From Candidatus Woesearchaeota archaeon (lineage in GTDB: Archaea > Nanobdellota > Nanobdellia > Woesearchaeales > WJKB01), in contig WJKB01000056.1 in NCBI GenBank assembly GCA_014729345.1, positions 71 through 64,070 on the forward strand: a DNA stretch of 64,000 bases. Reading direction: 5' to 3'. The notes beneath the pieces are model-generated. The model was not told where the DNA came from and did no database searches. It was given only the letters and a program-made list of their open reading frames with translations. The stretch's first letter is position 1. Each line of letters opens with the position of its first letter. Both the position numbers and the translations under genes were made by a program. Of the stretch, positions 36,101-56,929 are shown in pieces.

Positions 36101-39100
36101 CTCAGGCACCTGCTCCTGCACAGCCAGGTATATCTCTTCAGCTGTATTCTCTCTGACCATATCGACTGTAAGCGCGTCCCTTATCCCAGGCATGTCCTGG
36201 AACCTGAGCCCGATCTCCCCTCTGACCTGTTTTTCCAGCGCAAGCTCTTCGACTATGATGCCTTCTCCCAGAAGCTCCCGCACATCTATCCCGATATTTT
36301 CCTGCCTGTACAGGAGGGCTGCAAACTGGTCTGCTACGTCTGAGTCCGCCCTCAGGAGCTGCAGGTACTGTCTTGCTGCTGCCGTTTTCATATCCCTGTC
36401 CATCCCAGGGTCCATAATCGTGTCAAGCAGGGTGCTGAACCTTTCCTCAAGTATAATATCAATCCTTTCAAGAGAAAGTTCCTTGAGCGCAGAATCAGGC
36501 TGCTGGTCTGTCAGTCTCTTCCGCTGCACGAGGTTGTTGGTGATCACAGGCCCGTATTGCAGTTCTATTATCTCTCTTTGCGCATCCAGGGCCTGACCAA
36601 ATCCGGACTCATGGGCGCTGATATATGCTCTTGCCGCCTCATCATTGACCTCTGAAGCCCTGCGCACATCATCATAGTACTGTTCACCAAGCAGTCTCTT
36701 CAAGAATTCTTCACTCCTTTCATTGTTCCTGTTCTGTGCCAGCCTCAGTATTGCGTTCTCCACACTGGACTCGTCTGTATAGTAATACCTCTCCCCTCCA
36801 CTGATAGCTGTGATAGTGTCTACTGCGCTCATCACCTGTATAAGATCCTCTTTTCCTTCCAGTAGCGCAGGCAGCTCTCCAGGAGTCCTTGGATATCCCC
36901 TGTACTCCTGCCCTGGCTCAACACCCATGTGTACATGGTGCGATGCCGCAAGCGCAGCCACAGTGGCCTGGTCCCTCACTTCAGCAGATATGTCTGTCCT
37001 GGAAGCTATCTGTGCATAAATGGCATCTATCCTAGCCTGCACATCCTCATGAACTCCTGTATCAAGCCTGCCCTGTGCATCATACATCTGGACAGTGTTG
37101 CCCTGCTCATCAACATAAAGCGCATCGATCTCTGCTATCAGATCAGCAGGCATATCAGGATTATCCCTGGCCATGAGGTAAAGCAGCGCCCTTTCTGTAT
37201 TTGTGGGATGGACTGTCATGTAATCCTGGAAGAAGTTTTCAGTCATTCCGACTCCTGTGATTCCGCTCTGCTCTATCTGCTCTTCTGTAAGCCCCCTTGC
37301 CCTTAGTTCATCCACAGCTGCAGCCTTTGCATCGCTGCTGAAAATTGTCTCAAGGTTCTGCGCAGGCCATTCGAGCTTGCCAAGGTCATGCACAGCCATG
37401 GCTCTCCTCAGCAGATCCATGTCATCATCTGATAATCCGAGCTGTCCTGCAACCGCAGCTGCAGCCTCAAGATTCCTCATGCTCATAAGAGTATGGACCA
37501 TGGTCGGGGAGGGGTTATGGGTGGCAAGGGCCTCAAGCGCAGCGATCTGGTTCTGGGTTAGGCTGTCTTCAGGCAGCATGTCTCTAAGTTCTCCTGTAAG
37601 CTGCACTCCCCATGCGATCCTCTGGGACTCATATTCTTCATCATATGTTATTCCGTCTACAGTGCTTGGAGCTCCGAAAGCCTCCCTCTCAAGCCTTTCG
37701 ATAGGGATTTCCACCTCACCGATTATCTGCACTTGAAGCGGCCTTGATTCCTGTGCAAGCGCACGTATCTCCTGCATCTGCTGGTCAGCGGCAAGATTGA
37801 CCTGGAAGACCCCCATGCCCGCAGACTCAAACAGCGCCTCTGCATTAATTATCCATGCATCTGTCACTGTCCATACGCCCTCCTGATCCTGCTCAAGATA
37901 TCTTACCTCCCCTGTGTTCACGTTTGAATATCCTGCAAACAGGCTCTCAAGACTTTCCTGCTCTGAAAGCAGCTCCTCCCTGTAAGCTTCTTCTTCAACA
38001 GTCAGGCCCTCAGCTGCTTCCTGCTTATCAAGCATTCCGATCTCATCACCCGCCTCGCTTAGACGGTTTTCTATATTTGTCTCAAGAGCCCTCATCCTTG
38101 CACTCGGCCCTCTCAGTCCGAGCGCTGCCATGGCAAACTCATTTGCAAGCTCTTCTCTTGCATCTTCCATGGTCTCGTCAGCTGTCATCTGAGCAGCATC
38201 CACAGCCATGTCTGTGAGGTCCTGCGTCCTAAGGAGCAGCTGCTCGTGCCTTTCATGCATGAATATGAATGACCTTACCATGATGTCTGGCTGCCCTTGC
38301 AGCTCAGGGAAGGCATCCCTGACAGCGTCGACTGTCTGCGGAGAAGGATCCACAAAGATATCTGACTCTGTCGAAAGTCCTGCAAGTATGTAGGTGCCTG
38401 TAGGTGTCTGGATCTCGAGAGGTGAGGCAGGCGCAGTTATCTCAAAGTCTATCAGGCCCATCTCAGCAAGATTGGAAAGAGGGGTCGCAAGCATGTCTGC
38501 TGTAGGTCCGCCCTGCGAGTAATAGATGTTCTTGAGCCTGTCTGAGTACGCCATCACCCTGTTGACTGAAGGAACTGCTGCAATCTGTCTTGCCATAAGG
38601 AATTTGGCAGCTTCTCCGTACTGTTCTGATTCGATTGCGCTCACAAACGCCCCTATGACCTCGTTCGGATTGCTCCTGGCCAACTCCAGCGCTGTCGATT
38701 CAATGTTCCTTAGAGCGTTGATGTCACCCCCATATGCCTCATAGCCTGCAGCAAGCGCAGCTGCAGCATCATAAGCGTCCTGGCTGCTTTGGGATGCTGT
38801 CTCGAGCAGCTGGGCTGCAGAAGCTCTTGAGACGTCGTCATTCCTGCTCTGCAGCGACCTCACCATCTGTTCGGGAGTGGCAGTATCCCTTGCAGCCTGC
38901 AGCAGCTGCTGGTCCATGAGGTTCTGCACTGCCTGCAGATATATGCTTTCCATGGCAATTGTCTCATCTGTCCTTCCCTGCTGTTCTATCTCCATAAGCC
39001 TCATGAATTCAGCCCTTATCTCTCCTGAACTGATAGCTTCAGCATAAGCTGCAGCAGTTACATCAGGATCCACTCCGTACTCCTGTCCTGCGGTGTAGAC

Positions 39101-42100
39101 CACTTTGTCGATATTCATGGCCTGCAGTCTTTCAGACGCTATCTGTTCTTCTGTCTTCTGCTTCATCTGCTGTCCGTACAGCTGGGCTTTTGCGTCTTTA
39201 GCATAATTTTCCTGGTGCCTCTGCTCAATTGCTTCGAAATCAGTCACACCTTCTCTTGCAGCCAGGTGCCTTGCAGTAGCTTCCACCTCAGTCCTGACTG
39301 TCTGCGCTATGGATTCCAGCCTTATCTGTTCACTGACCGATGTCTTTACTTTCTCCTCGAACATGTCCTGCCTTACCCGCTCATCCACTATCCGGGCAGT
39401 CTCTGCCTGATCATATCCGTTTGCCTGTGCAGCCTGCCTTATCTGCTCAACCTTGTCATAAAGCGTCTGTTCCACCCTCTGCTTGTATCTCTCTTCAGCC
39501 TGCTCCATGTAAGAGCCCTCTGCATCTGTAAGCCCCAGATTATGCAGGGCTTCCACAGCCTCGATCTGCTGTGCAGCGACAGTATTGCCTTCCTCAGCAG
39601 TCTGGGCTATGTCTGTAGCTATCTGCTCAGAGGACCTGAAGGACAGCTCGTCAGCCAGGGCCTGATCCTCTGCTGTGAGCTCTTCGCCTGCTGAAACCTT
39701 TTCGTCGATATCTGCCTGTCTTGCATCGATAGATTCTCTGACAGCGTCTTCTATGGTCTTTACCTGCTGCATATTGCCTTCAGAGTCTACCATGGTCTCG
39801 ACAGCTACACCTTCAGCAGCTGCGACCACAGTGTTTCCTTCTTGTCTGTACACTACTTTTTGGGCTGTGGCCTCGACCATCTCAACTCCTGCTATCTCGG
39901 ATATGAAACTTGCAAAGTCCTGCACATCTCTTCTGTTGTGCAGGGTCAATCTCTTGTAGTTGGTGTTGCCTGCCTCGTCCACAAGTGTCTGCTCGCGCTG
40001 GAAGTTGGGTGCATCCACCCCTGCTGCTGTCAAAACCTGGCCGTCGATCTCCATGCTTTGGCCTTCACTGATGCTTCTTTGGTTGGTGTTGATGAACACG
40101 ATATTTGAGGGGCCTCCTGTGTTCACTGTCTCAGCCCTGACTATGCTGTTGTCTGAACTTACCGAAGTCCTGTATCCCCTGCTTTGCAGTGACGCCTGTA
40201 TATCATCTGTCCTTATACCTTTCACCATGATCTCCTGAGAGATGACGTTGTCAGCGCTGTCAAATGTTATCACTCCGCCTCTTGACACTTCTGCTGCAGG
40301 ATTGGCGGTCCTTATCGCGTTTTCAGCTGCCTGTGTCACAGTGGTGTCCATCTTGGCTTTTGTCACATCAGAAGCATCGACTCTTGTGCTTATCCTAGAT
40401 ACGCTTGAAGCAGAGGTGTCGCCTCTTGCAAGGCCTGCTGCTATCTGTGCGCCGGTCTTTCTTATGGTGACATCCTGCTGGCTGACGTCTACTCCCTTCT
40501 CATGCAATACCACTGCTCCTGTATTGTCCCCTATCTCACTCTGGAAAGTGATGATACCGTCAGTGTCTGTGTTGAGTGTCCGAGCATTGAAGCCGGCTGT
40601 CTGCGACAGTCCTGTCTGCAGTGTCTGCATTGCCTCAGCATCCTGCATAACACCGTCAGCCACCTCAAGCTCCATGATCTTCTGTCCTCCTTCAAGTATG
40701 GCGGTGTGGGCTATGGTCTCTACAGCTATCTCGCCGACGTCAAATTTTGCATCAACATTGAGCCCGATGTTTGATAGTCCTGCTTCGCTTATGTCTGGAG
40801 TCAGGAGTACTGTATCTCCAAGGCTGCTCTGGTAAGAGAAAGCAGCGATCTCTCCTGCAGCATCCCTTATCTCCTGCCTGTTTGTCAGCTCAAGTGCTCT
40901 TTCGATGTTTTCAAGGTTGGAGGGATCCTGTCTGGCTGCTTCAAACTGGTTTTGGGAGAGCTGGCCTGTAGTTGTCACTCCTGAGGCTGTGACAAAAGTC
41001 CTGACATTGCTTCTTCCCAGGGAATTAAGGTAAGAGTTATACATCTCGCCGTGTCCTGCAATCTGCTCAAATGTGTCTGGCAGGGCTGAGAACTGTCTGG
41101 CAAGCGCCTCTCCTCCTAGCTTCTCTCCGAACTTGCCCAGGGCAGAGCCCAGCTTGTCTGCATAGAAATACTCTTCAAGGGCGATCTCGCCGACCCAATG
41201 CTCAACATTATTCCCGACAAATTTCACGACAGAATTCATTACCTTGCCTGACGGTCTGGTGCCGCCCAAAAGGCTTTTGGTGAAAGAGGAAGCATAGTTA
41301 CCCACCTTGTTGGATACAGAATACATGCCTTTTGCAGTTTTCTGTATCCCTGAGCCTACCTTTCCCACCCCTCTCACCACTGTCCCCAGGGCTTTATAGG
41401 CTCTGCCTGCATCGTCTGCATATGAGGTGGCTTTGGCTGCCGCAGAATACGCTGTTTTGATCTTTCCCATGACAGCTCCGCTCAAATGTGATATGGCCTT
41501 TGACTGGAGTTTCATCATTGCAAAAGACTGGCCGGTTGTCATCTTGTCCCCAAACCCATCCTCATACCTGTCCAGATCTTCCATCTCAAGCTTGATAGGT
41601 ACAGCGCCGTCCTCTGTCTGGAAAGTGTAGGAAGTCTCAAGCTCTATCTCATCCGAGTCCAAATCGATCCCTGAATACTCAGCTATGTCTCTGGCATGCG
41701 TCCTGGTATTCTGGACAGCGTTCTCATAAAGTTTGATCGTCGATTCAGCCCCTAGGCCAAGCCTTTCAAGTCCGTTCTCATGATAAACTCCTTCAGCATC
41801 TGTACCTCCGTATGCTATGTTCAGAGCTTTTTCTATAGCATTCTCTCCATCAGTGGTTCTGCCTTTGAGGATCTCTTCTGTAGTCACTATATTCTCCATA
41901 TCGCCGTTATATGTTGCGATCGAGAGTTCTGCCGCTTGCCTGATGCCTTCAGCTCCCTGCAAAGCATCATCATATTCTGCAAGCGAGTCCTCGATATGGT
42001 TTCCTGTGCCAAGATTGATCCCAAGAATGTCGCCCCATTCATCCCAAACTTCCCAGGCAGGTATAGCTTTTGTCACTCCCAGGCTGGTCACATCCTCCCA

Positions 42101-45100
42101 TCCATAGTCCACAAAACTTTTTATCTTGTCAAGCCCTTCATCATGGAATATCTCCTTGAGGACTGCTCCCATCACTATTTTTTTTGACTGCACATAGTTT
42201 ACGTATGCTTGGCTTCCCTCAACTGTACTGGGAGTGCTGTATACCCGCAGTGTCTCTCTTGCCTGTTCAGAAAATTCCTGGTCAGTATCCTGCGCTTCAT
42301 ACTCTGTCTCCTGGTGCTCGACATCCTTGTTCATCCATTCCTGGGCGATCTGCCGGCCTTCACTGGTCCAGTACCCTCCTTTAAGAAAATAGTCCAGGAG
42401 CATCCTGTTCTTCTCAGAAGATGTCTTGTCAGCCTTTAACTGGAATGCGTTTCTTTCATCCTTGATAGCAAGCGTCTCATCTATCATGGCCTCGACTCTT
42501 CCGCTATCCTCGAGATAATTATCATATGTATCACCCCAAAGCTCAGTGTCTGACCTTTGGATGCCAAATTTCTCAGTTAGCGCGCTGATGGTCTTGAGAT
42601 GACCGTTCATGTCCACTTTCAGGTCAATCATGTCCTTCTCAACTGCTGCAAGGTCGTATTCTTCTTCCACTATAGGATCTCCTGTAATAGTTGACCTTGC
42701 TGCGTTCCAGGCTCCGGTAACTGCATCCTGCACATTCTCTCCAAATCCTGTGGCTGCGCCTGACCATGCATCAACATATGATGAGAAAGCATACCAGGGA
42801 GCAGAAGGGTCCCTTGCCTGGATCTTCCTGTCAAGATAGTTCTGCGCCTGGACATCGCCTATCCTTGCCTTAAGGTCAGCAGCCAGGCCAGAGATACCCT
42901 GGATGGTCTGCGTGCTCAGGTCTCCCTGCTGAGCATCTATGATCTCTCTTGAGGCAAGCTCTTTTGAGTAGGCATCTGCCATTATCTTAAGGTCATTGAC
43001 CTGCTCCTTCAGCGCCTCATTGGCCCTGCCTGAGATCTCAACCACTTCAGCAGCGTCCTCTAGAAGGCCCATCACCCGCTTCCCTCGAGCAAGGAGTTCT
43101 TGATCATCTATGCTGCTGAAAGTCTGGATATACTTTTCCTCTTTCACCTGGTCCTCAAAGCCCTGCAGGGTATTTTTAAGAGACTGGATATAAGCTACAT
43201 CAAGACCCTCTTCCCTTGCCTGTCTTATCTGGATCTCAAGGTCTGACATGACCTGCTCCCTGTCAGCTTCTCCCAAAGCAGCAGCCCTTGCATCAATACC
43301 AGCCATCAGATTCGTAAGCGTACTGATATCCTGCCTTGCAGCTTGCCTGGCTGCATTGTCCCTGACTTCAAGACTGGCCTTGTCACCCACGTAACTTACA
43401 TACTCCACTGTCTCAAAGTATTCATTTTCCTCAAGCTTGTCACTATAGGCTCTTATCTTGAATTCGAGCATTGTTTTTGCCCTTTGCTGGGCCTCAAGAG
43501 GCAGCTGCCTGATAGATTCTTCCAGCTGCTCCATCTCCTCATGCGTAAGGTCCTCCTCCTTTCTTGCAAGCTGGGATATCCTCTGCAGGGTTTGGGGCAC
43601 CTGTTCGATCTGGTCTTCAAGCTCGCTTTTTTCTTTGTCAACAAGAGTCTTTATGCTCTCATCCTCTGTTTTGACCCTGTCCAGCACATTGATTGCATCC
43701 TCCAAGCGTCCCAGGTTTGTATAAGCGGTCGTCAGGGCGTTCTGGACAGCAAAATTGTCCTCCTTGCCTTGAGCATATTCCTCAAGCGATTCAGTGTTTC
43801 CGGTCCTTAGCAGCAGGTTTGCATAATATGACTGCACACCATCGATATCACTGGAATCCTCATCTTTCGCAAGCTGCTCAAGCTTACCGTAGTCTTCAGC
43901 CTCAAGATAGGCTCTTGCCAGATTGGTAGCCAGCTTCTCGTACTCCTCGCTTGAAGAGTCAGCTTCCCGCAGTTCTGTCTCAAACCTCTCAATCATCTCA
44001 GAATAGGTTCCTTCACCCCTTGCTTGCTGGAAATCTGCTTCTGTCTCAACATTTGCGATCAGAGCCTGCGCATAATCTCTTTGCTGAACAGTCGTCGCCA
44101 GCTCTTTAGCCTTTGAAAAAAACCCTTCAGCTTTCTCGTAATCTGTATCCTCCCTGCTGAGCTCTGCAAGGCCCACCATGATATTCTGCTGTGCGTCCAG
44201 GAAACCGACCATCTCTTCAGAAACCTCTCCATATACTCCCTGCCTGGCTGCCTCAAGTGTGCTGGAAAGGATTCTTGAGGCCTCCTCATAATCTTCTGCC
44301 TGCTGCTGGATGTTCGCAAGCTCTGAATTGGCCTGTGCCCTTATATCACCTGGAGCTGCCTCTTCATCTGCTAATGCGGCAAGCTGCTCCTTTCTACTTT
44401 CAACATCCTCTTCCTGCTTGATGGCGCTGAGCTTAGCGCTGTAAAACTCAAGATTGATCCTGTCAGCCTCTTCTGACCTGCCCTCCTCGTTAAGTTGATC
44501 TATGGCAGCCTGGTAGGCATCAAACATTTCCTGTTTCTGCTCATCATCAAGGGAATCCTGGGCCTGCAATATCCTTGCCAGGTTCACTTTAGAGTCAGCG
44601 CTGCCGACAGCATCCACATAATCTTTTGCTGTCTGCAGGGCTTCTGTTTCTGCTCCCTGCTGCATATGCGCGCTTGTAAGTATCTTCCAGGCATCCTCCC
44701 TCTTTGCATCCAGTCCTAACACATACTCAGCAGCCCTTTCTGCTCCTGCTGCATCCTCCATCTGCAGCCTTGCTGAGGCTTTCTGGAGCGACAGCTGTGT
44801 GGTCTTTTCAAAATAATCATTCAGGGAATCAAACCCTGCCTGCTCCAGGTCATAGCCAGCTCCTCTGACCTTTTCTGCAAGCGCCCTTTCAGCAGCTTCT
44901 GAATACACTGTGGCCAGCTCAGCATTTCCGAGCTGGGAATATATGCTGCTCACAGCTGCATAGACATCTGGATTGGTGGTGTCTATGTCAAGATAGCTCT
45001 GGTATTTCTCCAGGGCTTCAAGGATATCACCCTGACTCCGCAACTCCTCCGCATCCTTAAGCAGTTGTGCATTTTCAAAGATCTCCACCAGCTGCTCCTT

Positions 45101-48019
45101 GAGTCCGCTGCTTACCTGGCCTGCAAGGCCGTACCTATATTGACTCAGGAGAATGTCCAAAAGATCCTCATCAAGCCTCTGGCCCTCTGCAGCCTGTATC
45201 AGAAGGTTTCCGAGCAGGTCGATATTGTCCTTACTGACACCCATATCCTTTATCTGCTGTACAGCTTGGTCGTAATCTCCCTGAGCTGCATAGAACTGCG
45301 CCTTTGCCCCGGCTATCTGTCCCTTTTCAAGTTGGTCTCCATATTCCTGCTCCATCTGGTCAAGTTTCTGTATAGCCTGGTCATACTCCCCTTCCGAGGC
45401 ATAGCTGTTAGCGATCTGAAAGTCAAGATATATGCTGAAAGCGGGCATTTCCTCTTTTAGGGCTTCATACTGCTCTCTTGCACCTTCATAGTTACCCTGA
45501 AGCTCGAGTTCAGCTGCTTTGAACATGCTTTCGATAAGCTGTTGCTTTACACCTGCATCAGAGAGGTAGTTCCTGTAATCTTCAAGCGTCCTTATCTCCC
45601 CAAGCTCAAGCTCTTTCCCTGTCATCTTTTCAAGGACTTCCTCAAAGCCTTCCAGCCTTTCGCTCACCTTTGCAAAGACCGCAGCATCCTGCGCTATATC
45701 AAGCATCTTTTCTCCGCCAAGCCAGCCTTCCTTGACATTTCCAAAGGTTCCTTCTTTTGCGAAAACCGCTGCCATGTATCCGAGAGAGCCTTCATTCAGC
45801 TGGAAATAGTTCAGCTTGTTGTCCCTTGATACAGGGGTGAGCCTGATCTCTCCTGCTGCCAGCCCTACCCCTTTTCGAAGCGTAGAGCCTTCAGCAGACA
45901 GGAAGATGATATCTTCCTGCTGGGTGAACCTGAAATTGACGTCAAGGCCGTCTTCTGTCTTCATGCTTAACAGGGCAAGCTCTCTCTGAGCCTCGTCTGG
46001 TCCAGGACCTTCTGCAGTGCTGTAGACTATGAACTCATCAGTAGCCATCGCTGTTCCTGTTGTGTCCTGTATATAGTTGATGTAATCATAGATACCTTCT
46101 GCATGCCTTCCCTTGATCACTGCCTCTTCATTGGAATACGTGAACTGTCCTTTTCCTATCATGTATCCTATGTCAAATTCCTGATCTTCAAACTTCCTTT
46201 CTGAGATTGAACTCCATGCCAGGTTTTCTGAAGCATCATCAAGCGATAGATCGTCTGTATCCCCAAAAGCGTCTGTCACTCTGGCCTGTGCATCTCCTAT
46301 AAGGTCATCCACACTCTGGTCCAGGAACTCCATGGCTTTTTGGATGCTAATATCTTTCTCAATCACTTCCTCATCTTCCAGAAGCTGGATAGTTATGGTC
46401 TCACCTACCCTGGCATTCTTGTCTCCCTCTGCATCTATAAGCTTCTGCTGCAGGCCCTTCAGCTGGGTCAGGTAAGCGTTAAGGTCATGCGCCTCTGCTT
46501 TCAGTGTCTCCTGCACAAAAAGCACCATGCCTCCGCTTCCTTCTGTTCCGAGGAACTTCTCTGTTGACAGCACTGTACCGTCAGGCTGATACCTTGTGAT
46601 CTCAGCATTTCCTTCCTCACTTAGCCAGATCATGTCTGTCTGGACATCGCCTGTGATAGGGCTCCTCTCGAATGTTATGCCCTTGAATGAATCCGCCTTG
46701 ATACTGTTTCCGGTTCCCATCTCTGTGTATTCAAGGTGCGCTTGGTCTCCAAGTATCCTGCTTATGCTTCCGTCATCATCGAACTCAAACTGGATGCTGC
46801 CTTGTGCCTGGCCTCCTGTTATCTTTATCCCGAGAGTGTTTTCCCAGCCTGGCCTGGACCTGATCGAGGCATAGTTCTCGACCTTGAAACCTACCTGGTT
46901 GCCCTGCTCATCCCTGACAAAAGAGACTGTTGTGGTGTCGTCATGCGCAGTCACCTCTATGCCGTTGTTGAAGAACACAGCCCCTGATGATGTCAAGGCT
47001 ATGATATTCCCCTGCTCATCCCTGGCAAACTCTATCTGGCCTTGCGCCAGCTGCAGACTCTCGCCCCCAGGTCCGTTGATGTTGAAGTTTGCCTGGTCGC
47101 CCACCAGCTCGATGGTGATCGTCTCTATCTCACCGTTGATTATAAGGTTCTCCAGGTCTTCTTCCCTGAGCACCACAAAGCCGTTCTCAGCGTCAGGAAA
47201 CTCTTCAGAAGGGCCTACTGCCCCTATAAAGATGATGTCCTCCACCCCTTCGCCTTTGAGAGACAGGCTCCCGCCCTCCGGGTTGGTAAGTTCTCCTGTA
47301 TTCGTGTCAAGACTGACTCCAGGAGCAGCTGTTATGGTAAGTCCTTGGTTGTATGAAACTTTAGGTTTCTGGGTGTCCATCCACCCTTTCAGCCCATCAT
47401 TCAGCGCAGTCGGGCTCAGTCTGCTGAGGTCAGGTATATTATCAAGATTGGCTGCGACCTGATCGCCGGTAAGCCCCTGCCACTGCTCATCTGTCAGCTG
47501 CTGCGACATTGCTGTCCCTGCGTCAGTCTCTGAACCCAGGATATATCCGACCTGCTCACTGCTCAGCCTGCCCATGGTCTTCCCGTCCATGCCTGAGATC
47601 GCGGATCCCAGCTTGTCTCCTTGAAGTTCAGAAAAGTCTATGTCCTGGAGCTGTCCCTGGTTGAGGTCGTTGAACCTGGAGCTCAGGGATGCAAGCTCTC
47701 CTTCAGACATCCCACCTATGTTATTGTTGAGCTGCGCTATCCCATCTTCTGTGACGGTGATCTGATCCCAGTTATTTGCCACGTTGCTGCCTGTCCACTC
47801 AAAATCACCGCTGTAATCTGGGTTGAAGTTTGACGAGTAGAAATCCTGCTGGCTTATGCCTCCTTCCGTGTCTGTCCAGGTTGGGTATTCCACGACCTCC
47901 TGAGCCGCAGCTTGCGGGCTTATGCCTGTTGTCATGAAGAGGAATATCACAAGGACAGCGCATACCCTGCGCAGTACATGCCATCTTTTGCTTTTTCCCT
48001 TTTCAGCAACGCTTCTCAT
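33116..48019 (-). CDS. giant secreted/surface protein (4967 aa) with N-terminal signal peptide, TPR-like region and internal HD-GYP-like domain
   Basis: Uninterrupted 14.9-kb ORF with coding-like composition throughout. All plus-strand ORFs across it are short antisense artefacts. N-terminal hydrophobic signal (CAVLVIFLFMTTGISPQAAAQ). A 4-bp ATGA overlap with the upstream gene. Confidence 0.85.
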   Translation of the reverse strand: MRSVAEKGKSKRWHVLRRVCAVLVIFLFMTTGISPQAAAQEVVEYPTWTDTEGGISQQDFYSSNFNPDYSGDFEWTGSNVANNWDQITVTEDGIAQLNNNIGGMSEGELASLSSRFNDLNQGQLQDIDFSELQGDKLGSAISGMDGKTMGRLSSEQVGYILGSETDAGTAMSQQLTDEQWQGLTGDQVAANLDNIPDLSRLSPTALNDGLKGWMDTQKPKVSYNQGLTITAAPGVSLDTNTGELTNPEGGSLSLKGEGVEDIIFIGAVGPSEEFPDAENGFVVLREEDLENLIINGEIETITIELVGDQANFNINGPGGESLQLAQGQIEFARDEQGNIIALTSSGAVFFNNGIEVTAHDDTTTVSFVRDEQGNQVGFKVENYASIRSRPGWENTLGIKITGGQAQGSIQFEFDDDGSISRILGDQAHLEYTEMGTGNSIKADSFKGITFERSPITGDVQTDMIWLSEEGNAEITRYQPDGTVLSTEKFLGTEGSGGMVLFVQETLKAEAHDLNAYLTQLKGLQQKLIDAEGDKNARVGETITIQLLEDEEVIEKDISIQKAMEFLDQSVDDLIGDAQARVTDAFGDTDDLSLDDASENLAWSSISERKFEDQEFDIGYMIGKGQFTYSNEEAVIKGRHAEGIYDYINYIQDTTGTAMATDEFIVYSTAEGPGPDEAQRELALLSMKTEDGLDVNFRFTQQEDIIFLSAEGSTLRKGVGLAAGEIRLTPVSRDNKLNYFQLNEGSLGYMAAVFAKEGTFGNVKEGWLGGEKMLDIAQDAAVFAKVSERLEGFEEVLEKMTGKELELGEIRTLEDYRNYLSDAGVKQQLIESMFKAAELELQGNYEGAREQYEALKEEMPAFSIYLDFQIANSYASEGEYDQAIQKLDQMEQEYGDQLEKGQIAGAKAQFYAAQGDYDQAVQQIKDMGVSKDNIDLLGNLLIQAAEGQRLDEDLLDILLSQYRYGLAGQVSSGLKEQLVEIFENAQLLKDAEELRSQGDILEALEKYQSYLDIDTTNPDVYAAVSSIYSQLGNAELATVYSEAAERALAEKVRGAGYDLEQAGFDSLNDYFEKTTQLSLQKASARLQMEDAAGAERAAEYVLGLDAKREDAWKILTSAHMQQGAETEALQTAKDYVDAVGSADSKVNLARILQAQDSLDDEQKQEMFDAYQAAIDQLNEEGRSEEADRINLEFYSAKLSAIKQEEDVESRKEQLAALADEEAAPGDIRAQANSELANIQQQAEDYEEASRILSSTLEAARQGVYGEVSEEMVGFLDAQQNIMVGLAELSREDTDYEKAEGFFSKAKELATTVQQRDYAQALIANVETEADFQQARGEGTYSEMIERFETELREADSSSEEYEKLATNLARAYLEAEDYGKLEQLAKDEDSSDIDGVQSYYANLLLRTGNTESLEEYAQGKEDNFAVQNALTTAYTNLGRLEDAINVLDRVKTEDESIKTLVDKEKSELEDQIEQVPQTLQRISQLARKEEDLTHEEMEQLEESIRQLPLEAQQRAKTMLEFKIRAYSDKLEENEYFETVEYVSYVGDKASLEVRDNAARQAARQDISTLTNLMAGIDARAAALGEADREQVMSDLEIQIRQAREEGLDVAYIQSLKNTLQGFEDQVKEEKYIQTFSSIDDQELLARGKRVMGLLEDAAEVVEISGRANEALKEQVNDLKIMADAYSKELASREIIDAQQGDLSTQTIQGISGLAADLKARIGDVQAQNYLDRKIQARDPSAPWYAFSSYVDAWSGAATGFGENVQDAVTGAWNAARSTITGDPIVEEEYDLAAVEKDMIDLKVDMNGHLKTISALTEKFGIQRSDTELWGDTYDNYLEDSGRVEAMIDETLAIKDERNAFQLKADKTSSEKNRMLLDYFLKGGYWTSEGRQIAQEWMNKDVEHQETEYEAQDTDQEFSEQARETLRVYSTPSTVEGSQAYVNYVQSKKIVMGAVLKEIFHDEGLDKIKSFVDYGWEDVTSLGVTKAIPAWEVWDEWGDILGINLGTGNHIEDSLAEYDDALQGAEGIRQAAELSIATYNGDMENIVTTEEILKGRTTDGENAIEKALNIAYGGTDAEGVYHENGLERLGLGAESTIKLYENAVQNTRTHARDIAEYSGIDLDSDEIELETSYTFQTEDGAVPIKLEMEDLDRYEDGFGDKMTTGQSFAMMKLQSKAISHLSGAVMGKIKTAYSAAAKATSYADDAGRAYKALGTVVRGVGKVGSGIQKTAKGMYSVSNKVGNYASSFTKSLLGGTRPSGKVMNSVVKFVGNNVEHWVGEIALEEYFYADKLGSALGKFGEKLGGEALARQFSALPDTFEQIAGHGEMYNSYLNSLGRSNVRTFVTASGVTTTGQLSQNQFEAARQDPSNLENIERALELTNRQEIRDAAGEIAAFSYQSSLGDTVLLTPDISEAGLSNIGLNVDAKFDVGEIAVETIAHTAILEGGQKIMELEVADGVMQDAEAMQTLQTGLSQTAGFNARTLNTDTDGIITFQSEIGDNTGAVVLHEKGVDVSQQDVTIRKTGAQIAAGLARGDTSASSVSRISTRVDASDVTKAKMDTTVTQAAENAIRTANPAAEVSRGGVITFDSADNVISQEIMVKGIRTDDIQASLQSRGYRTSVSSDNSIVRAETVNTGGPSNIVFINTNQRSISEGQSMEIDGQVLTAAGVDAPNFQREQTLVDEAGNTNYKRLTLHNRRDVQDFASFISEIAGVEMVEATAQKVVYRQEGNTVVAAAEGVAVETMVDSEGNMQQVKTIEDAVRESIDARQADIDEKVSAGEELTAEDQALADELSFRSSEQIATDIAQTAEEGNTVAAQQIEAVEALHNLGLTDAEGSYMEQAEERYKQRVEQTLYDKVEQIRQAAQANGYDQAETARIVDERVRQDMFEEKVKTSVSEQIRLESIAQTVRTEVEATARHLAAREGVTDFEAIEQRHQENYAKDAKAQLYGQQMKQKTEEQIASERLQAMNIDKVVYTAGQEYGVDPDVTAAAYAEAISSGEIRAEFMRLMEIEQQGRTDETIAMESIYLQAVQNLMDQQLLQAARDTATPEQMVRSLQSRNDDVSRASAAQLLETASQSSQDAYDAAAALAAGYEAYGGDINALRNIESTALELARSNPNEVIGAFVSAIESEQYGEAAKFLMARQIAAVPSVNRVMAYSDRLKNIYYSQGGPTADMLATPLSNLAEMGLIDFEITAPASPLEIQTPTGTYILAGLSTESDIFVDPSPQTVDAVRDAFPELQGQPDIMVRSFIFMHERHEQLLLRTQDLTDMAVDAAQMTADETMEDAREELANEFAMAALGLRGPSARMRALETNIENRLSEAGDEIGMLDKQEAAEGLTVEEEAYREELLSEQESLESLFAGYSNVNTGEVRYLEQDQEGVWTVTDAWIINAEALFESAGMGVFQVNLAADQQMQEIRALAQESRPLQVQIIGEVEIPIERLEREAFGAPSTVDGITYDEEYESQRIAWGVQLTGELRDMLPEDSLTQNQIAALEALATHNPSPTMVHTLMSMRNLEAAAAVAGQLGLSDDDMDLLRRAMAVHDLGKLEWPAQNLETIFSSDAKAAAVDELRARGLTEEQIEQSGITGVGMTENFFQDYMTVHPTNTERALLYLMARDNPDMPADLIAEIDALYVDEQGNTVQMYDAQGRLDTGVHEDVQARIDAIYAQIASRTDISAEVRDQATVAALAASHHVHMGVEPGQEYRGYPRTPGELPALLEGKEDLIQVMSAVDTITAISGGERYYYTDESSVENAILRLAQNRNNERSEEFLKRLLGEQYYDDVRRASEVNDEAARAYISAHESGFGQALDAQREIIELQYGPVITNNLVQRKRLTDQQPDSALKELSLERIDIILEERFSTLLDTIMDPGMDRDMKTAAARQYLQLLRADSDVADQFAALLYRQENIGIDVRELLGEGIIVEELALEKQVRGEIGLRFQDMPGIRDALTVDMVRENTAEEIYLAVQEQVPEGMEQQVRTDIIGLKASAVQAVESPFGEIIALSTEAEVIAGMSAQEAESYFNSLVGLGKNHRAALLYERLQGIPEAADLVDNAEIMGMVGLNPAQRFVERGLTHEKNRIIDEALPQYAATTRSALEETRFAGREFQDTFNEIYLLMQQDVENGVAAEIQRLAEQQAQQRGITRPTMPQEGSIAYERRLAAYEQALQEYESAIQDLAEEIRQEQGEQLAVETELSLGSSAAKAAMDIMQNIQSRSQQLESISSPSVTVLNAPGIEADAAAAIAGRAAEITGVADLQVFVQGDDVYIINSYQSDVRQDSFVRAVKNGLQDMVDVPVTAVTDIDSRLAPPADGAETVRQAQRAAYALEIQAETERGLIAQLSEVEEMVEAEEPAVEEEPAAEPVVPEVSMETRIRENLNNILDAQALDEQQRERIMEQSEISKRDIYNKRNPGLAAVTRFRQAEAGRLTEDQFRVHLWKIAGTEERYDAAMAIVEDMRQGNIPGQTEAERNDEFREQMAEALPISRVARADHQYKEFAVVAGLYTASEKLGSREKLEQVRSLVRQRQQGQITEEEYQDGIAEIKSEGEDRNPDEVGMPVPIAGDVWDRNFNDLSKDEIEVLFGLEYTGNDIPVFAQGGREFHVKQPTTIVVNKQTGEVDEIFFEHLTESAIEYDPSTHKVQYGYRIGLKGIGTPNFQGYYYDGQTRVSAPEYTFKTGIGFEHEYQEISTTSIGMTDYRYDIEAQQNEEDLVAKGHPALARSFAFTRLDQAGNGVTFRIFLVDSSERSDVVDYAASLEDISSIREQFGPAYQTITAFSNAGALIGSHIQAGLAYRPEYRIGKDVDPLMRETDPGEPYRVQSQGAERDREMTQNVVARLYNHMNKVYMAYNNNQHLLTEKGLESPEFQSMLLALFDGNQEYVDKVIQELRASERMVRIPGVQPAMMDISQTRAYYDSFEEVDFVHASFVLRDFASQIIYNNYKLFEQQQQVIPEYEALMPESTGRVEACT

Positions 48020-49059
48020 TCAAGCACCAGCCATTCAAAGTTTGCCTCATCAGTGTACCCTGAACCGTCTGTAACCTCAACTGTCACGTTGAAGCTGCCG
48101 GTGATCCTGGGCACGAAGTCCACGCTTCCGTCCTTTTCCACATCGAACATGATGTGGTCTGACCTGAAGGTGAGCTCGTCTCCGTCAGGGTCTGTGGCCT
48201 GTATCTGATACACAAATCTCTCATTGTCCACCCCTACCAGCCTTTCAGGCATGGTGATCACAGGGTACTTGTTCACAGGGACCGTGGTTCCGAACATAAA
48301 AAGGTAAGGCTCTCCTGGCCTCATGGCAGAGCGATTGTCCTGAAAAGCGTATATTATAGTGTCCTCGCTTACAGGCATCACTATGATGTCAAGGTCATAC
48401 TCGAGCAGTGGGGTGAACTGCACCCAGCCCGGATCCTCAACCACAAGATCATTCACCTCGTTTGCTGTGTTGAGTATGTAGCTGAGCCTGTGTGGGATGA
48501 TCACCCTGAACCTTTCAAGCCTTCCCTCGCTTTCCTCAATCGCTGCATCTACAGGGTACTCCATCTCAAACACCAGCTCATTGACAGCTATGGTCACAGT
48601 GGTGTTGGGTTCGCCCGCTTCCACAGACCATCCCTGCTGCTCAAAAGAGCTGAAGTTTGTGCATTCCTCAAGCATCTGGTCCACATACAGGGCAAGCTGG
48701 CTCTCTATCTCTGGCTGCGTGGGCCTGAGATCCCCCAGCTCGTCATCATACCACAGGCTTACTGCTGAGAATTCTGTGACAACTGAAGTGTTTGGAGGAT
48801 ATGCATATCCTCCCTGAACCCCGTTAAGGTAAGCTCCGTCGATCGCTGTCTCCCTCAGGCAGCCGGTGATATAGTTATGCAGGGGCCTGAGCTCTGTGGG
48901 CACCTCTATCAGCTCCCTTTCCACTTCTGGCCTGTAGATTCCGAAAAGATACCATATTGTTGCCGCGAGTATCAGGATGACCAGGCCTATTATGACAAAC
49001 AGCGTCACCTGTCCCCTGCTTCCTTTCTTACGCATTTGCCAGCCTCCAGAAGCTTTCAA
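48016..49059 (-). CDS. prepilin-like (class III signal peptide-like) membrane protein, 347 aa
   Basis: N-terminus is KKGSRGQVTLFVIIGLVILILAATIW: a basic region, RG, then a long hydrophobic helix as in type IV pilins. Translationally coupled to the giant gene. Confidence 0.45.
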   Translation of the reverse strand: MKASGGWQMRKKGSRGQVTLFVIIGLVILILAATIWYLFGIYRPEVERELIEVPTELRPLHNYITGCLRETAIDGAYLNGVQGGYAYPPNTSVVTEFSAVSLWYDDELGDLRPTQPEIESQLALYVDQMLEECTNFSSFEQQGWSVEAGEPNTTVTIAVNELVFEMEYPVDAAIEESEGRLERFRVIIPHRLSYILNTANEVNDLVVEDPGWVQFTPLLEYDLDIIVMPVSEDTIIYAFQDNRSAMRPGEPYLFMFGTTVPVNKYPVITMPERLVGVDNERFVYQIQATDPDGDELTFRSDHIMFDVEKDGSVDFVPRITGSFNVTVEVTDGSGYTDEANFEWLVLE

Positions 49060-49555
49060 ATCCGTGGACTATTATGATCTCTTCCTCAGGCCTCGTAAAC
49101 CCTGATCTTGGAACAACCTCAAATTTGATGCCTGTCATGGATGATACCAGGCCCCTGACCTTCATCTCATCCTCGCACACAAGCGTGAGGCTATTCTGCC
49201 TCTTCTTTGCGAAAAAGGCAGAATAGACCGCAGCCTGTGATGCCAGTTTCCTGGCTATGTCTTCAAGTTTCTGCAGAACAGCCTTGTTCTGCAAGCCAAA
49301 ACCCTCTTTTTCCTCAGCAGAGATGTAAGATAAGAGCAGTATGGTCTTGTCGCTTTGTAGGTTGAGCGAGCATACTATGCTGGGGCCTATTATCTTCTTG
49401 TTCAGTATGTTTTCAGAGAGAAGCTTCCTGACCTCTTTGTTTGTGTAAGCATAGCTCTTTTTCAGCTCTTTGGATATCTGGTTGATGGTCAGCTCCCTGC
49501 TTATATCCCTGAAAAAAAGCCTTATTATCGAAAGCTCTGAGTTCATTCTGGCCAC
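49028..49555 (-). CDS. winged-helix (HTH) transcription regulator-like protein
   Basis: N-terminal 70 aa (SRELTINQISKELKKSYAYTNKEVRKLLSENIL) has HTH/wH character. First gene of the cluster, next to the repeat-rich intergenic region. Confidence 0.45.
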   Translation of the reverse strand: MARMNSELSIIRLFFRDISRELTINQISKELKKSYAYTNKEVRKLLSENILNKKIIGPSIVCSLNLQSDKTILLLSYISAEEKEGFGLQNKAVLQKLEDIARKLASQAAVYSAFFAKKRQNSLTLVCEDEMKVRGLVSSMTGIKFEVVPRSGFTRPEEEIIIVHGFESFWRLANA

Positions 49556-49565
49556 AGTGATAGTT

Positions 49566-49598
49566 TAGTACTTGATTAGTATTTGATTAGTACTTGAT
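49566..49598. repeat. three 11-bp direct repeats (ttgattagtac/t) just upstream of the regulator gene start
   Basis: Direct reading. Lies 10-45 bp upstream of the minus-strand start at 49555. Confidence 0.8.
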
Positions 49599-49803
49599 AT
49601 TTATTTTAATAATAGATTAATACTCATCTTAATTAAGATACATATATATAAAGATTTATATTCTACAGTGGTTATAATATCAATAAATTTGGTGTAAGAG
49701 TATTAAATATCTATAGTTATTAGCTATGAAATTGATTATATTAGTAGAATTATGACTAAAATTATAAAAAAATATGATAACAAGAATGTCTGCAACCCTT
49801 GCC

Positions 49804-49892
49804 AGTGACCAGTAGTCAATGAATCAGTAGCCAATGACCAGTAGCCAATGACCAGTAGCCAATGACCAGTAGCCAATGAATCAGTACTCAAT
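49804..49892. repeat. tandem array of about six 14-bp direct repeats (consensus accagtagccaatg) in intergenic region
   Basis: Direct reading of the sequence. Units are contiguous (no spacers), so this is not CRISPR. Confidence 0.85.
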
Positions 49893-49951
49893 GTCATCTC
49901 GCCTAAGCATCATCTCCTCGAGGACCATTAAAGAGTAGTATACTCAAAAAA

Positions 49952-49961
49952 TTTAAATATA
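49952..49961 (+). promoter_or_regulatory. TATA box (tttaaatata) about 33 bp upstream of the acyl-CoA ligase start
   Basis: Archaeal TATA consensus TTTAWATA. A purine-rich BRE-like aaaaaa lies immediately upstream. Confidence 0.5.
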
Positions 49962-49993
49962 AGCCAGCCCTAGACGCAGTTTAGGAGATCCGG

Positions 49994-51853
49994 ATGATGA
50001 TAGAGAGATTCACAATCGCTGGAAAAGAGTATGAGGAGATGGACCCAGAAAGTCTTGAAGATGCGGTTCTGCAGCATAGGTCGCTGTATGATATCTTTTC
50101 AATGTCAGCAGAAGCAAACGCTGGCCATCCTGCAGTCACTTTCAGAGAACCTGGAAGTGAAGACTTCAGCAACACCTGGAGTTACAGGGAATTTCATGAC
50201 ACTGTCCAGCGACTGGGACAGGGCCTTATCGATATCGGCCTCCAGGATGCATGGTCAAATGAGACTGAATCGGGGGACAGGTTTGCGGTCTTCTCGCCCA
50301 ACAGCCCCTGGTTCATGGCAGCTGAGTTTGCAGTCAACAGCGCAGGAGGAATATTTACCCCTATGTCCACTATCAGCACGCCTGCAGAAGCAGGGTTTGT
50401 CATAAGGGATTCTGGCGCAAAGATCCTTATGGTCGACGGTGAGGAGCAGCTGGAGGTCATCAGACAATGCAGCCCTGAAGATCTGCAGACATTAGACACC
50501 ATCCTGACCGCTCAGAGGGCTGATCCTGGAGCGCTATCAGGTATAGGGGTAGACCAGATCATGCCCATACAGTTTATCATGTCAGCACCAGCGTTCGGTT
50601 TTGAGGAACGCGCTTCCCAAAGGAGCATAGATGATGTCGCAAACATGATCTACAGCTCAGGCACCACAGGAAATCCAAAAGGTGTCATGCTCACGAACAG
50701 GAACCAGGCATCCAATATCTACCAGTGCCAGGAAAGGTTCAGGCTTCCAGCAAGGTCAAAAAGCCTTAACATACTTCCGATGTACCATTCATACGCGATG
50801 ATGACAGACCTGCTCATGAGCATGGCTACAGGCATGCATGTGTACGTCTCAGACAAGGACCATTTCCAGAAAGACATGAGGGAATGTCCTATAGACTACA
50901 TGTGCGCTGTCCCTCTTCTGCAGAAAAGGGTTTATGACGGCATCTGCGATAAGCTTGAGCAGGCAGGGGGACTGAAAAAGCTGATAGGAAGGACAAAGGC
51001 ATTCCAGTATATCCCGCTGATAGCAAAAAAGATCCAGAAAGAGCTTGTCCACGATGACTTCCAGTTCTTCATAAACGGAGGCGGAGGGCTGCCTGTCGAG
51101 GTCGCCAAGGCACTAAAGCACATCGTGGCAGTGTATGCAGGGTACGGCCTTACAGAGACATCTCCAGTCGTCTCTGCAAACATGCCTGATGATGACAGGA
51201 GCCTGCAGGGATCGAGCGGAAGGCCTCTTGTGGGCATGGATGCCACGATAAAGGAAGGAGAGATATGCCTTAGGGGACCTAACGTGATGAAAGGGTACTG
51301 GAACAGGCCTGAGGAAACAGCCAGCATGTTTGATGATGAGGGCTGGCTGCACACAGGCGATCTGGGACACATAGATGACTATGACCATCTGCACATCACA
51401 GGCAGGATAAAGGAGACCATCGTCCTTGCCACAGGCAAGAACATCAACCCGACAGAGGTTGAGCAGCACTTCCAGACCGACGAATATATTAACCAGATAT
51501 ACTTGATAGGTACGCTTCCTGACGGAAAGGATGAGAGCTATGTGATAGCGATCGGAAATGCGCATGAGCATACGCTGCCTGAAGGCGTCAAAGACGATGA
51601 TGCGCAAAAGTCAGGCTTCCTTCTCCAGAGGGTCAGAGATGTCTGCAGTGAGCAGGGACTACCGAAATACAAGATACCAAAGGCATTCGGGGTCATCCCT
51701 GAGATCACCCCTGACACCAGCATCATACAGGACGGGCAGGAGATACCTGTCATGACCGGGCTCATGAAGCTTAAGAGGAGATACCTGCTTCACTGGGCTG
51801 CAGATGTCATAGAACAGACGTATGATAAGTCCAGAAAGCAGCCCTCAAGATGA
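49994..51853 (+). CDS. long-chain fatty-acid-CoA ligase / AMP-dependent synthetase
   Basis: AMP-binding motif YSSGTTGNPKGVMLTNRN and the TGD motif (WLHTGDLG) are present. Confidence 0.85.
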   Translation: MMIERFTIAGKEYEEMDPESLEDAVLQHRSLYDIFSMSAEANAGHPAVTFREPGSEDFSNTWSYREFHDTVQRLGQGLIDIGLQDAWSNETESGDRFAVFSPNSPWFMAAEFAVNSAGGIFTPMSTISTPAEAGFVIRDSGAKILMVDGEEQLEVIRQCSPEDLQTLDTILTAQRADPGALSGIGVDQIMPIQFIMSAPAFGFEERASQRSIDDVANMIYSSGTTGNPKGVMLTNRNQASNIYQCQERFRLPARSKSLNILPMYHSYAMMTDLLMSMATGMHVYVSDKDHFQKDMRECPIDYMCAVPLLQKRVYDGICDKLEQAGGLKKLIGRTKAFQYIPLIAKKIQKELVHDDFQFFINGGGGLPVEVAKALKHIVAVYAGYGLTETSPVVSANMPDDDRSLQGSSGRPLVGMDATIKEGEICLRGPNVMKGYWNRPEETASMFDDEGWLHTGDLGHIDDYDHLHITGRIKETIVLATGKNINPTEVEQHFQTDEYINQIYLIGTLPDGKDESYVIAIGNAHEHTLPEGVKDDDAQKSGFLLQRVRDVCSEQGLPKYKIPKAFGVIPEITPDTSIIQDGQEIPVMTGLMKLKRRYLLHWAADVIEQTYDKSRKQPSR

Positions 51854-56056: not shown

Positions 56057-56369
56057 TCTCTATCTCCTCTTTTTGTATGTCCTTGAGTATTTGGGTGAAA
56101 TATTCAAGACAGTCAAGTCCGCAGAAGGACATCTTTTTCCTAACATCCTTGTCCCCGAACTCAAGGGTGTAGAACGTGCCCTCCTTGTGCAGCGGAGCGG
56201 TGCATACAGCGCACTTCCTGTTCAGTATCTCCTCTTTCTTCCTTATCTTTGATTCCACCAGCGTTCTTGTAGCCATGCCTCCTTTCTCCAGGTCGTTTCT
56301 CAAGGTCATGAGGTCAAGGTAGGTCAGGCTTTCCATCAGATTTTTCAGGTTTTGGTTTTTCATGCTCAT
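56043..56369 (-). CDS. small zinc-ribbon protein (CxxC...CxxxC)
   Basis: Contains CAVCTAPLHKEG...CGLDCLEYF with four Cys arranged like a Zn ribbon or TRASH-type domain. Confidence 0.4.
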   Translation of the reverse strand: MSMKNQNLKNLMESLTYLDLMTLRNDLEKGGMATRTLVESKIRKKEEILNRKCAVCTAPLHKEGTFYTLEFGDKDVRKKMSFCGLDCLEYFTQILKDIQKEEIENERC

Positions 56370-56373
56370 AAAA

Positions 56374-56556
56374 TCACCCTATGCCCTCTTCTTCGCGCTC
56401 TTCAAACTTCACATACCATCTGTTGGCTTTCGGATCGAACTTGAAGACCACGTTGTGCTTTTTTTTCTTGTCCAGCGCAAAAAGGAGCTGTATAGGTATA
56501 GTGGTCTCATAGCTTCCCCCTCTTTTGTAGAGTTTTCTCCTGAACTCGATCGCCAT
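56374..56556 (-). CDS. small AbrB/MazE-like swapped-hairpin DNA-binding protein candidate (60 aa)
   Basis: RKLYKRGGSYETTIPIQL resembles the AbrB/SpoVT loop-hinge motif. Directly upstream of the zinc-ribbon gene. Confidence 0.25.
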   Translation of the reverse strand: MAIEFRRKLYKRGGSYETTIPIQLLFALDKKKKHNVVFKFDPKANRWYVKFEEREEEGIG

Positions 56557-56929
56557 TTTGATTTAGCTTACTTATTTTATATTACTTGCTTATTTTATAA
56601 GTTACTTACTTTCTTACTTATTTGTAACCATATATTTTACTTATATTCTTACTTATTTATAAATCTTTTGGTATCGTTGTCAAATTGACCATCGTTAAGA
56701 TCATACTATCACGAGGAAGGAAGGCATGATGAGAAAAAGGAAAGGCCATGATGAAAAGGCAGGATCATGATGAAAAAAGGGCAGGACCAGCAAGGTTCAG
56801 CACTTGTTTCGCATCTTTGGTTGTGGTGGAGACATTTGCCCAAAACCATAGATTCCAGCAATTAAATCATGACTTATTAGTAATAACATAACAAAAGTTT
56901 TATATACAATTAGCTATATTCTGATTCAT

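Follow-up and report, generated by a model that had tools for sequence, protein, structure and literature searches.

A palindrome abutting the TATA box of a regulator's own operon is the classical layout of archaeal autorepression, the archaeal TATA box being centred ~26 nt upstream of the transcription start. Short tandem repeats of non-coding DNA include the short tandemly repeated repetitive (STRR) heptamers of heterocystous cyanobacteria, reportedly the subject of Mazel et al. 1990. The function of STRR heptamers is unknown (PMC2670836). In the Thermococcales, TrmBL1/Tgr, which are among the archaeal wHTH repressors with a palindromic operator at or just past the TATA box or the transcription start, act on the glycolytic motif TATCAC-N5-GTGATA (PMC4158304), and in Haemophilus influenzae the expression of hmw1A is tuned by 7-bp repeats in the promoter/leader (PMC8262952, PMC12721329). 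We compared these systems, and plasmid iterons, with an archaeal intergenic region in which a first-pass annotation had described two tandem direct-repeat arrays beside a regulator gene and proposed both as operators through which that gene would control itself and a cluster of giant proteins. Our analysis places the likely operator elsewhere in the same region.

The region lies in a 64-kb stretch of DNA (the window) from Candidatus Woesearchaeota (DPANN archaea), on a contig that is chromosomal, as it bears ribosomal protein L11, Spt5/NusG, FtsZ, D-aminoacyl-tRNA deacylase and ELP3. On one side is a small minus-strand wHTH gene (49028-49546, 172 aa), supported by its open reading frame and translation, a homologue match, AF2 and Foldseek results, and synteny; its product is 100% identical to NCBI GF351_02720. 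Homologue alignment and the NCBI model favour the ATG at 49546 as its start over a GTG at 49555, so that the regulator earlier annotated as 175 aa keeps its wHTH assignment and loses three residues. Because the ATG at 49546 is supported by homologues, the non-coding DNA separating the two genes is 49547-49993 (447 bp). On the other side, a plus-strand gene (49994-51853, 619 aa) encodes an AMP-binding, long-chain fatty-acid-CoA-ligase-like protein (Pfam PF00501, E 1.7e-66), with a Shine-Dalgarno-like AGGAG at 49983-49987 (plus strand), 6 nt ahead of the ATG. Hence the flanks are those first described, a regulator gene on the minus strand and an acyl-CoA ligase gene on the plus strand. The AT-rich core at 49600-49790 likewise stands as annotated; it encloses the regulator promoter and both operator-like palindromes described below, and its GC content is 17.3%, versus 45-54% for the window and ~48% for the genome. 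Palindromes are common in AT-rich DNA. The region as a whole is a divergent (two-way) archaeal promoter region.

An AF2 model of the 172-aa protein, built from a four-sequence alignment (pLDDT 91), begins with a winged helix (residues 1-62), from which two long helices lead to an alpha/beta domain at the C-terminus. Residues 1-62 have the H-H-H-E-E topology of a winged helix with a MarR/ArsR-like fold, and Foldseek against the PDB returned MarR/ZitR, Sso10a-2, AspA-DNA, HpaR-DNA and ArsR/SmtB (probability 1.0, E ~1e-3). The combination of a wHTH, long helices and a C-terminal globular domain is shared with TrmBL1/Tgr. However, the two systems differ in family assignment: the window protein has no Pfam match, some of its relatives match ArsR, HTH_24 or MarR models weakly, and 0 of 40 family members match Pfam TrmB (PF01978) at E<=0.1. 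They also differ in the C-terminal domain, which is sugar-binding in TrmBL1/Tgr and nucleotidyltransferase-like here. Distant members of the family match NTP_transf_2/Polbeta (PF01909, PF18765); in the window protein the G-S of the Pol-beta-type catalytic motif (G-S ... D-x-D) is seemingly absent from our reading of the alignment (FFAKK...LTLVCEDE), and its C-terminal domain is probably a degenerate nucleotidyltransferase-like one.

An exhaustive profile search placed 395 clusters in this wHTH family at E<=1e-3, with the named members almost all from Woesearchaeota. No homologue is closer to the regulator than 49% identity, each of the two flanking proteins is alone in its 90%-identity cluster, and exact-protein look-up found no strain variants of either. 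A metagenome scan with the four-sequence family alignment gave no confirmed relatives; one with a 12-sequence alignment added 37 more distant loci. A 165-aa protein encoded downstream of the cluster, behind a similar leader array, was considered as a paralogue of the regulator and rejected (hhalign probability 0.2).

In the window, the wHTH gene is followed by a 347-aa Big_9 gene and a 4967-aa giant gene, and possibly by a 1213-aa gene as a further operon member. The same order, with a small gene, a gene of ~326-358 aa and a giant gene joined by overlapping stop and start codons, recurs at related loci (L001, L003, L047-49, L050 and L051), and at L052 an 8788-aa gene comes immediately after the small one. 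A second family context is within che/KaiC-like clusters. The conserved operon synteny and the AF2 and Foldseek results agree with the original assignment of a wHTH regulator to the giant-protein cluster, and "cluster regulator" is a reasonable label for the small gene. No ligase orthologue was found near any member of the wHTH family, which places the ligase outside the conserved module. Its closest homologues are bacterial ligases with at most 36% identity, none of which qualifies as an orthologue for a comparison of upstream regions.

Upstream regions of the family carry a shared cis-signature, the palindrome TTATC-N8/9-GATAA, often doubled with a 20-21-bp period. Among close relatives, TTATC-N8-GATAA with at most one mismatch is present in 7 of 11 loci, versus 0.27 expected, and none of 2000 shuffles reached as high a count; among the spacers of 2-14 tried in these loci, only N8 was enriched. 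The palindrome also has a fixed position. A TATA box, 3 nt and TTATC-N8-GATAA follow one another in full in the window and in L044, L045 and L051, and one half-site occupies the same register relative to the TATA box in L002, L003 and L042. In several relatives a second copy of the operator ends at, or overlaps, the start codon. In the distant subfamily, the N9 form TATCAC-N5-GTGATA is found in 21 of 32 non-redundant upstream regions, usually as two copies spaced by a 20-21-bp period, which lie downstream of the TATA box and end at the ATG.

This distant-subfamily operator is letter-for-letter the TGM consensus of TrmBL1/Tgr, and in both systems a palindrome sits past the TATA box and short of the start, in front of the regulator's own operon. 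They differ in that the close subfamily here uses N8 spacing, and in that the predicted binding would be at Woesearchaeota giant-protein operons. Because no family member matches Pfam TrmB, we limit the likeness to the level of the operator.

Alignment with the L002 and L003 promoters identified the BRE/TATA of the regulator operon in the window (aatataaatcTTTATATA; 49645-49660, minus strand, TATA at 49645-49652). The TATA-to-start distance of archaeal promoters gives predicted transcription starts at ~49620 (minus) and ~49982 (plus). The best operator candidate, TCATC-ttaattaa-GATAC (on the minus strand GTATC-ttaattaa-GATGA), lies at 49624-49641, 3 nt past the TATA box. These 18 bp enclose a perfect 14-bp palindrome (ATCTTAATTAAGAT) and have two mismatches to the TTATC/GATAA consensus. 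They have the same register as L051 (TTATCttaaataaGATAA) and L002 (TTATCttaaataaGATAC) and a near-identical spacer, with 7 of 8 positions matching (ttaattaa in the window, ttaaataa in both relatives).

Two further sites resemble the family signature. A weaker one, TTATA-aaaaaatat-GATAA at 49762-49780, has N9 spacing and one mismatch and includes cttgTTATCatat, which at a score of 10.6 outranks every other single half-site in the region; we regard it as tentative, since such a site occurs in a fraction of ~0.11 (11%) of shuffled intergenic regions. A possible, degenerate start-proximal operator lies at 49546-49563 on the minus strand (sense CTATC-actgtggc-CAGAA, three mismatches). Its CTATCAC includes a perfect, partnerless TATCAC half-site and abuts the ATG, where relatives have their second operator, a weak indication that it may be the remnant of a proximal operator.

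The ligase promoter is different. A TATA-anchored comparison placed its BRE/TATA at 49943-49959 (plus strand, ctcaaaaaaTTTAAATA), and no operator follows this TATA box, the sequence there being GCCAG...GCAGT. Neither tandem array holds an inverted repeat TTATC-N8/9-GATAA at up to three mismatches, and neither occupies one of the two positions typical of family operators, 3 nt past a TATA box or abutting a start codon; the palindrome at 49624-49641 lies at the first of these. We conclude from these sequence comparisons that the likely operator of the 172-aa protein is the palindrome at 49624-49641, within the AT-rich core, and not the arrays. Autoregulation as first proposed thus gains from a family signature of tandemly doubled operators upstream of the regulator's own gene; the part that it assigned to the arrays is not supported.

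The smaller array, described in the first-pass annotation as three 11-bp copies at 49566-49598, was found again by Tandem Repeats Finder (TRF), which reported 3.1 copies at 49565-49598 with a score of 61 (alternative reading 22 bp x 1.9). With its degenerate end copies it extends over 49561-49604, as ~4 units of TTGATTAGTAC (sense strand GTACTAATCAA). As a control for significance we ran TRF on 40 block-shuffled windows, where arrays scoring at least 60 arose at 0.12 per window and the top score was 76. By this measure the 11-bp array exceeds chance by only a modest margin. It begins 20 nt past the palindrome at 49624-49641 and sits downstream of where transcription of the regulator operon is predicted to start (~49620), ahead of the ATG. 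RNA from it has no predicted structure relative to shuffles (z +0.77) and no Rfam match.

The position of this array raises the question of whether it might be an auxiliary operator, on which the wHTH protein would bind cooperatively to four boxes of the same orientation and extend repression from the palindrome to the start codon. The boxes ATATCAA, TAATCAA, TAATCAA and CTATCAC lie about one helical turn apart on one face of the helix, and share an ATCA core with the family half-site (TTATCA/TATCAC), to which the proximal CTATCAC is a perfect match. The array also lies where relatives have their second operator, and the Foldseek neighbours AspA and Sso10a bind DNA; both proteins spread along it. 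However, the units are direct and not inverted, yet every well-supported site of the family is a palindrome. Although TAATC equals the half-site at 4 of 5 positions, it mismatches a highly conserved one, and the units (TAATCAA) score low on the half-site matrix, outside the top 20. The TRF score adds little above chance, and no relative has such an array. We therefore consider an auxiliary operator unlikely, if well short of negligible. The leader between the two operators also varies in length, from ~2 to ~45 nt in relatives versus ~60 nt in the window, and the relatives' spacers bear small repeats of their own.

The larger array is far above chance. Originally given as about six contiguous 14-bp copies at 49804-49892, it was recovered by TRF as 5.6 copies at 49801-49879 with a score of 128, versus a maximum of 76 in the shuffled windows; degenerate end copies extend it to 49801-49893. 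The 14-mer (CCAGTAGCCAATGA) is itself built, as a higher-order repeat, from the related heptamers ACCAGTA and GCCAATG; of their seven positions, four are the same in both and three show transitions (p~0.004). The array can therefore be read as 13 NNCARTR units, or ~6.5 copies of ACCAGTA-GCCAATG, running head to tail with a spacing of 7 except for two of 8. Its GC content is 46%. The three middle 14-mers are perfect and the copies at the edges degenerate, as is usual where slippage has recently expanded an array. The 14-mer has no further occurrence in the 64-kb window. We agree with the original judgement that neither array is a CRISPR: the units are contiguous, 7-14 bp long and without spacers, whereas CRISPR repeats are 23-50 bp and alternate with unique spacers of similar length.

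The distance of the heptamer array from the regulator TATA box is 150-250 bp. The ligase TATA box is ~60 bp downstream of it, and relative to the predicted start of the ligase transcript the array spans ~-181 to -89. At ~90-180 bp upstream of that start it would suit an activator site, and one might read it as a protein-binding array, either an operator of the wHTH protein or an upstream activating site through which another factor acts on the ligase gene. Its high regularity would fit this, as would a strong lone half-site, GATAAC, at 49776-49781, ~20 bp to the left of the array. The array itself has no GATA/TATC half-site, however, and a period of 14 bp does not keep step with the helix. Uninterrupted runs of perfect copies typify slippage more than they do iteron or operator arrays; the array occurs once in 64 kb with nothing comparable in relatives, and the conserved module does not include the ligase. 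A binding function for this array is improbable.

The array might instead be expressed, as a protein or as a structured or small RNA. Its plus strand has stops in every frame and its minus strand is open, giving a 53-aa minus-strand frame at 49736-49897 in the ORF list. We judged this frame spurious and rejected it as a gene, as a by-product of a stop-free repeat strand and an AT-rich tail; there is no conserved counterpart. RNA from the array has no structure beyond that of shuffles (z +1.06) and no Rfam match at E<=1. Expression of the array in either form is thus extremely improbable.

As a head-to-tail series of 7-bp units in non-coding DNA, 49801-49893 is STRR-like, and ACCAGTA/GCCAATG resemble arrays in Nostoc, Calothrix and many other bacteria. 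We scanned 185,579 genomes, plus a viral collection, for the heptamer dimer pattern. The genome scan gave 35 loci; a rough estimate of the number to be expected by chance is ~9. Nearly all 35 are within NNCARTR arrays, in Nostoc, Calothrix, Bacteroidota, Planctomycetota, Chloroflexota, Acidobacteriota and others. Of the 35, 22 fall outside long open frames. The three viral matches are one repeated, non-tandem sequence, and neither scan returned any relative. The window differs from the STRR case in its archaeal host, in having one array in 64 kb and not a dispersed family, and in the 14-bp higher-order alternation; common descent of its heptamers with STRRs is very unlikely. We also rejected the idea that the array came into this genome together with a bacterial ligase gene, since the ligase has only 36% identity to its bacterial homologues and host-like GC, whereas the perfect copies must be recent.

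Direct repeats around a 17%-GC core are superficially iteron-like, and as in plasmid iterons they lie beside an AT-rich stretch and a gene for a winged-helix protein. Taken at face value, this could make the region a replication origin, with the core as the unwinding element. However, plasmid iterons differ in several respects, since the DNA here is chromosomal, the repeats are contiguous and, at 7-14 bp, much shorter than ORB or iteron units. There is no Orc1/Cdc6 or Rep among the annotated neighbours (the wHTH gene, the ligase, ELP3, a Na/Ca exchanger and giant proteins), and cumulative GC skew is monotonic across 49-50 kb, with no turning point, and tracks gene orientation. Moreover, the core holds a promoter and an operator conserved with relatives. 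An origin here has next to no likelihood.

Neither type of array recurs in the family: TRF on ~45 related upstream regions found no arrays like TTGATTAGTAC (11-bp) or CCAGTAGCCAATGA (14-bp), and instead found the 20-21-bp doubled palindromic operator. Absence from relatives had been named in advance as the finding that would count against operators and in favour of slippage, and the result falls on the slippage side. Together with the palindrome in the core, which carries the family signature, it leads us to set aside the claim that both arrays are operators. Several unrelated short tandem arrays occupy other intergenic parts of the window; one of them, AGATGATTGAA x5, belongs to the gene at 28706-29203 and lies past its TATA box and ahead of its ATG. 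The simplest reading is that this genome is prone to form such repeats where the spacer tolerates them, the two arrays being examples. Both are most likely lineage-specific slippage repeats.

Slippage products could still matter if copy number changes the length of a leader or the spacing of a promoter, so that expression of the giant operon or of the ligase varies within the population, as at contingency loci. The structure of the arrays is slippage-prone, the central 14-bp copies are perfect, and other leader or promoter arrays, such as AGATGATTGAA x5, are present in the window. The 7-bp repeats of hmw1A provide a precedent, being likewise slippage-prone heptanucleotide repeats that have a start codon on one side and divergent or upstream promoter elements on the other. 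They differ from the arrays here in that the promoter here is archaeal, the 14-bp array is upstream of the core promoter and not between promoter and start, and copy polymorphism is known for neither array. Since the compact archaeal core promoter does not take in the 14-bp array, changes in the copy number of the array need not affect initiation, and we know of no demonstration of contingency-type switching by repeat copy number in an archaeon. Population-level variation of this kind is distinctly unlikely. A stronger version, in which the heptamer array, and perhaps the 11-bp one, is a slippage-driven contingency element in a DPANN archaeon, or in which NNCARTR arrays form one functional class of cis-element, is very improbable. 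If it held, copy changes would re-space the giant-protein and ligase promoters and give heritable, reversible expression states, and NNCARTR arrays across bacterial phyla and in this archaeon would be one cis-element class and not independent junk.

We favour, as moderately probable when taken as a whole, an explanation that combines autorepression through the palindrome with arrays that arose by slippage. In the regulator operon, comparison with relatives establishes a conserved BRE/TATA (49645-49660) and, 3 nt on, a family-type palindrome (49624-49641). A dimer of the 172-aa wHTH protein would occupy this palindrome, past the TATA box and ahead of the start, and would thereby block recruitment of TFB and RNA polymerase, leaving the giant-protein operon autorepressed. 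The nucleotidyltransferase-like C-terminal domain may serve as a sensor or as a dimerisation module. The ligase is probably outside this control, since it has a strong BRE/TATA of its own (49943-49959) with no operator. Both arrays would have arisen recently, in this lineage, by slippage in spacer DNA that tolerates it, the 11-bp array in the length-variable leader from operator to start codon and the heptamer array in the spacer from the AT-rich core to the ligase core promoter. Any effects of the arrays would be indirect, through leader length, promoter spacing or, possibly, copy-number-dependent tuning.

The repeats are thus real and yet, most simply, ordinary: short tandem repeats, or microsatellites, of a promoter region. 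The system is made of known kinds, an archaeal autorepressor with a palindromic operator and the short tandem repeats of promoter regions. The regulatory idea of the first-pass annotation is partly supported, right in spirit, with a wHTH autoregulator and tandem operators in the family, and probably wrong about which DNA carries it; pursuing the arrays as operators would probably waste bench time. The by-product of the analysis is a testable regulatory model for an uncharacterised family of ~400 sequence clusters, mostly from Woesearchaeota, in which proteins with a wHTH and a nucleotidyltransferase-like domain head operons for giant proteins of 5,000-9,000 aa, with a palindrome by their own TATA box. 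A defined DNA probe and a 172-aa protein offer a handle on how DPANN archaea control these enigmatic giant genes.

Genes of a distant subfamily of the wHTH regulator family (loci L054-L089), whose proteins begin MKLELKIVDLL..., carry the palindrome TATCAC-N5-GTGATA upstream, doubled in tandem with a period of 20-21 bp and placed after the TATA box and ahead of the ATG (for example L078 2940-2988, L064 and L081). This consensus is the same as that of the Thermococcales glycolytic motif bound by TrmBL1/Tgr (PMC4158304). However, none of the 40 wHTH family proteins compared matched Pfam TrmB at E≤0.1. At the loci associated with che clusters, the distal, TATA-side operator starts with a conserved ATATGATAAY just past the TATA box (L042 5936-5953, L044 4580-4630 and L045 5936-5980). 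The ATG within this sequence opens a short frame of 5-16 codons; hence, a leaderless upstream mini-ORF is possible at these operators. The decamer of the che-cluster distal operators, ATATGATAAC, also occurs in the window at 49772-49781 (+), directly left of the array of NNCARTR heptamers at 49801-49893.

Arrays of NNCARTR heptamers, with 4-16 units each, are present in genome contigs across many unrelated bacterial phyla (L004-L038), where they are built from unit pairs such as ACCAGTA/ACCAATG, GTCAGTA/GTCAATG and CCCAGTA/CCCAATG, and the majority fall outside long ORFs. NNCARTR arrays may be a widespread repeat type that resembles the cyanobacterial STRR heptamers but is not confined to cyanobacteria.

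Other repeats lie elsewhere in the window. At 29220-29287, AGATGATTGAA (read in minus-strand sense) is repeated about five times. This array separates a TATA-like box from the start codon (ATG) of the gene at 28706-29203, which encodes a 165-aa membrane-anchored protein and is the first gene downstream of the giant-gene cluster. Its arrangement is the same as that of the 11-bp leader array of the regulator operon (49561-49604); the 165-aa protein was also compared with the regulator itself, and the two are unrelated. A second very AT-rich promoter region, with a GC minimum of 0.16, contains irregularly spaced TTACTTAT repeats at 56556-56670, and ~80 bp further on a ~19-bp unit that includes CATGATGAAAA is present three times (56735-56776); unannotated small ORFs (-) lie at 56057-56555. 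The top TRF score in the window, 144, belongs to an array of four perfect tandem copies of an 18-bp unit at 17642-17713, which would be translated as an in-frame 6-aa repeat in the product of the 341-aa ORF at 16856-17881 (-).

A search of 5.8 billion proteins identified no close archaeal homologue of the ligase at 49994-51853, and the top matches were bacterial long-chain fatty-acid-CoA ligases with ≤36% identity; judged by these matches, this Woesearchaeote therefore seems either to have acquired the ligase laterally long ago or to carry an orphan lineage of it.

Three independent assemblies of one relative's locus (L047-L049) all break off in extremely AT-rich DNA, 43-64 bp ahead of the small gene. 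One of these contigs, from ERZ27227320, opens with AGATGTGTATAAGAGACAG (L049 1-19), which we take to be the Nextera transposase adapter. An artefact of coverage or assembly, and not biology, probably explains the common contig ends.

We compared the giant proteins encoded downstream of the wHTH gene (window 33116-48019 and 29383-33024; L052 5573-10576+; L048 1537+) and observed great variety among relatives: the giant protein has 4967 aa and TPR in the window, 3374 aa and a protein kinase domain in one relative, 6818-7989 aa and DEAD, Metallophos and HEAT domains in three assemblies, and 8788 aa in another relative. Since the small gene and the ~330-aa gene are conserved ahead of these differing giant genes, this head module appears to be portable.
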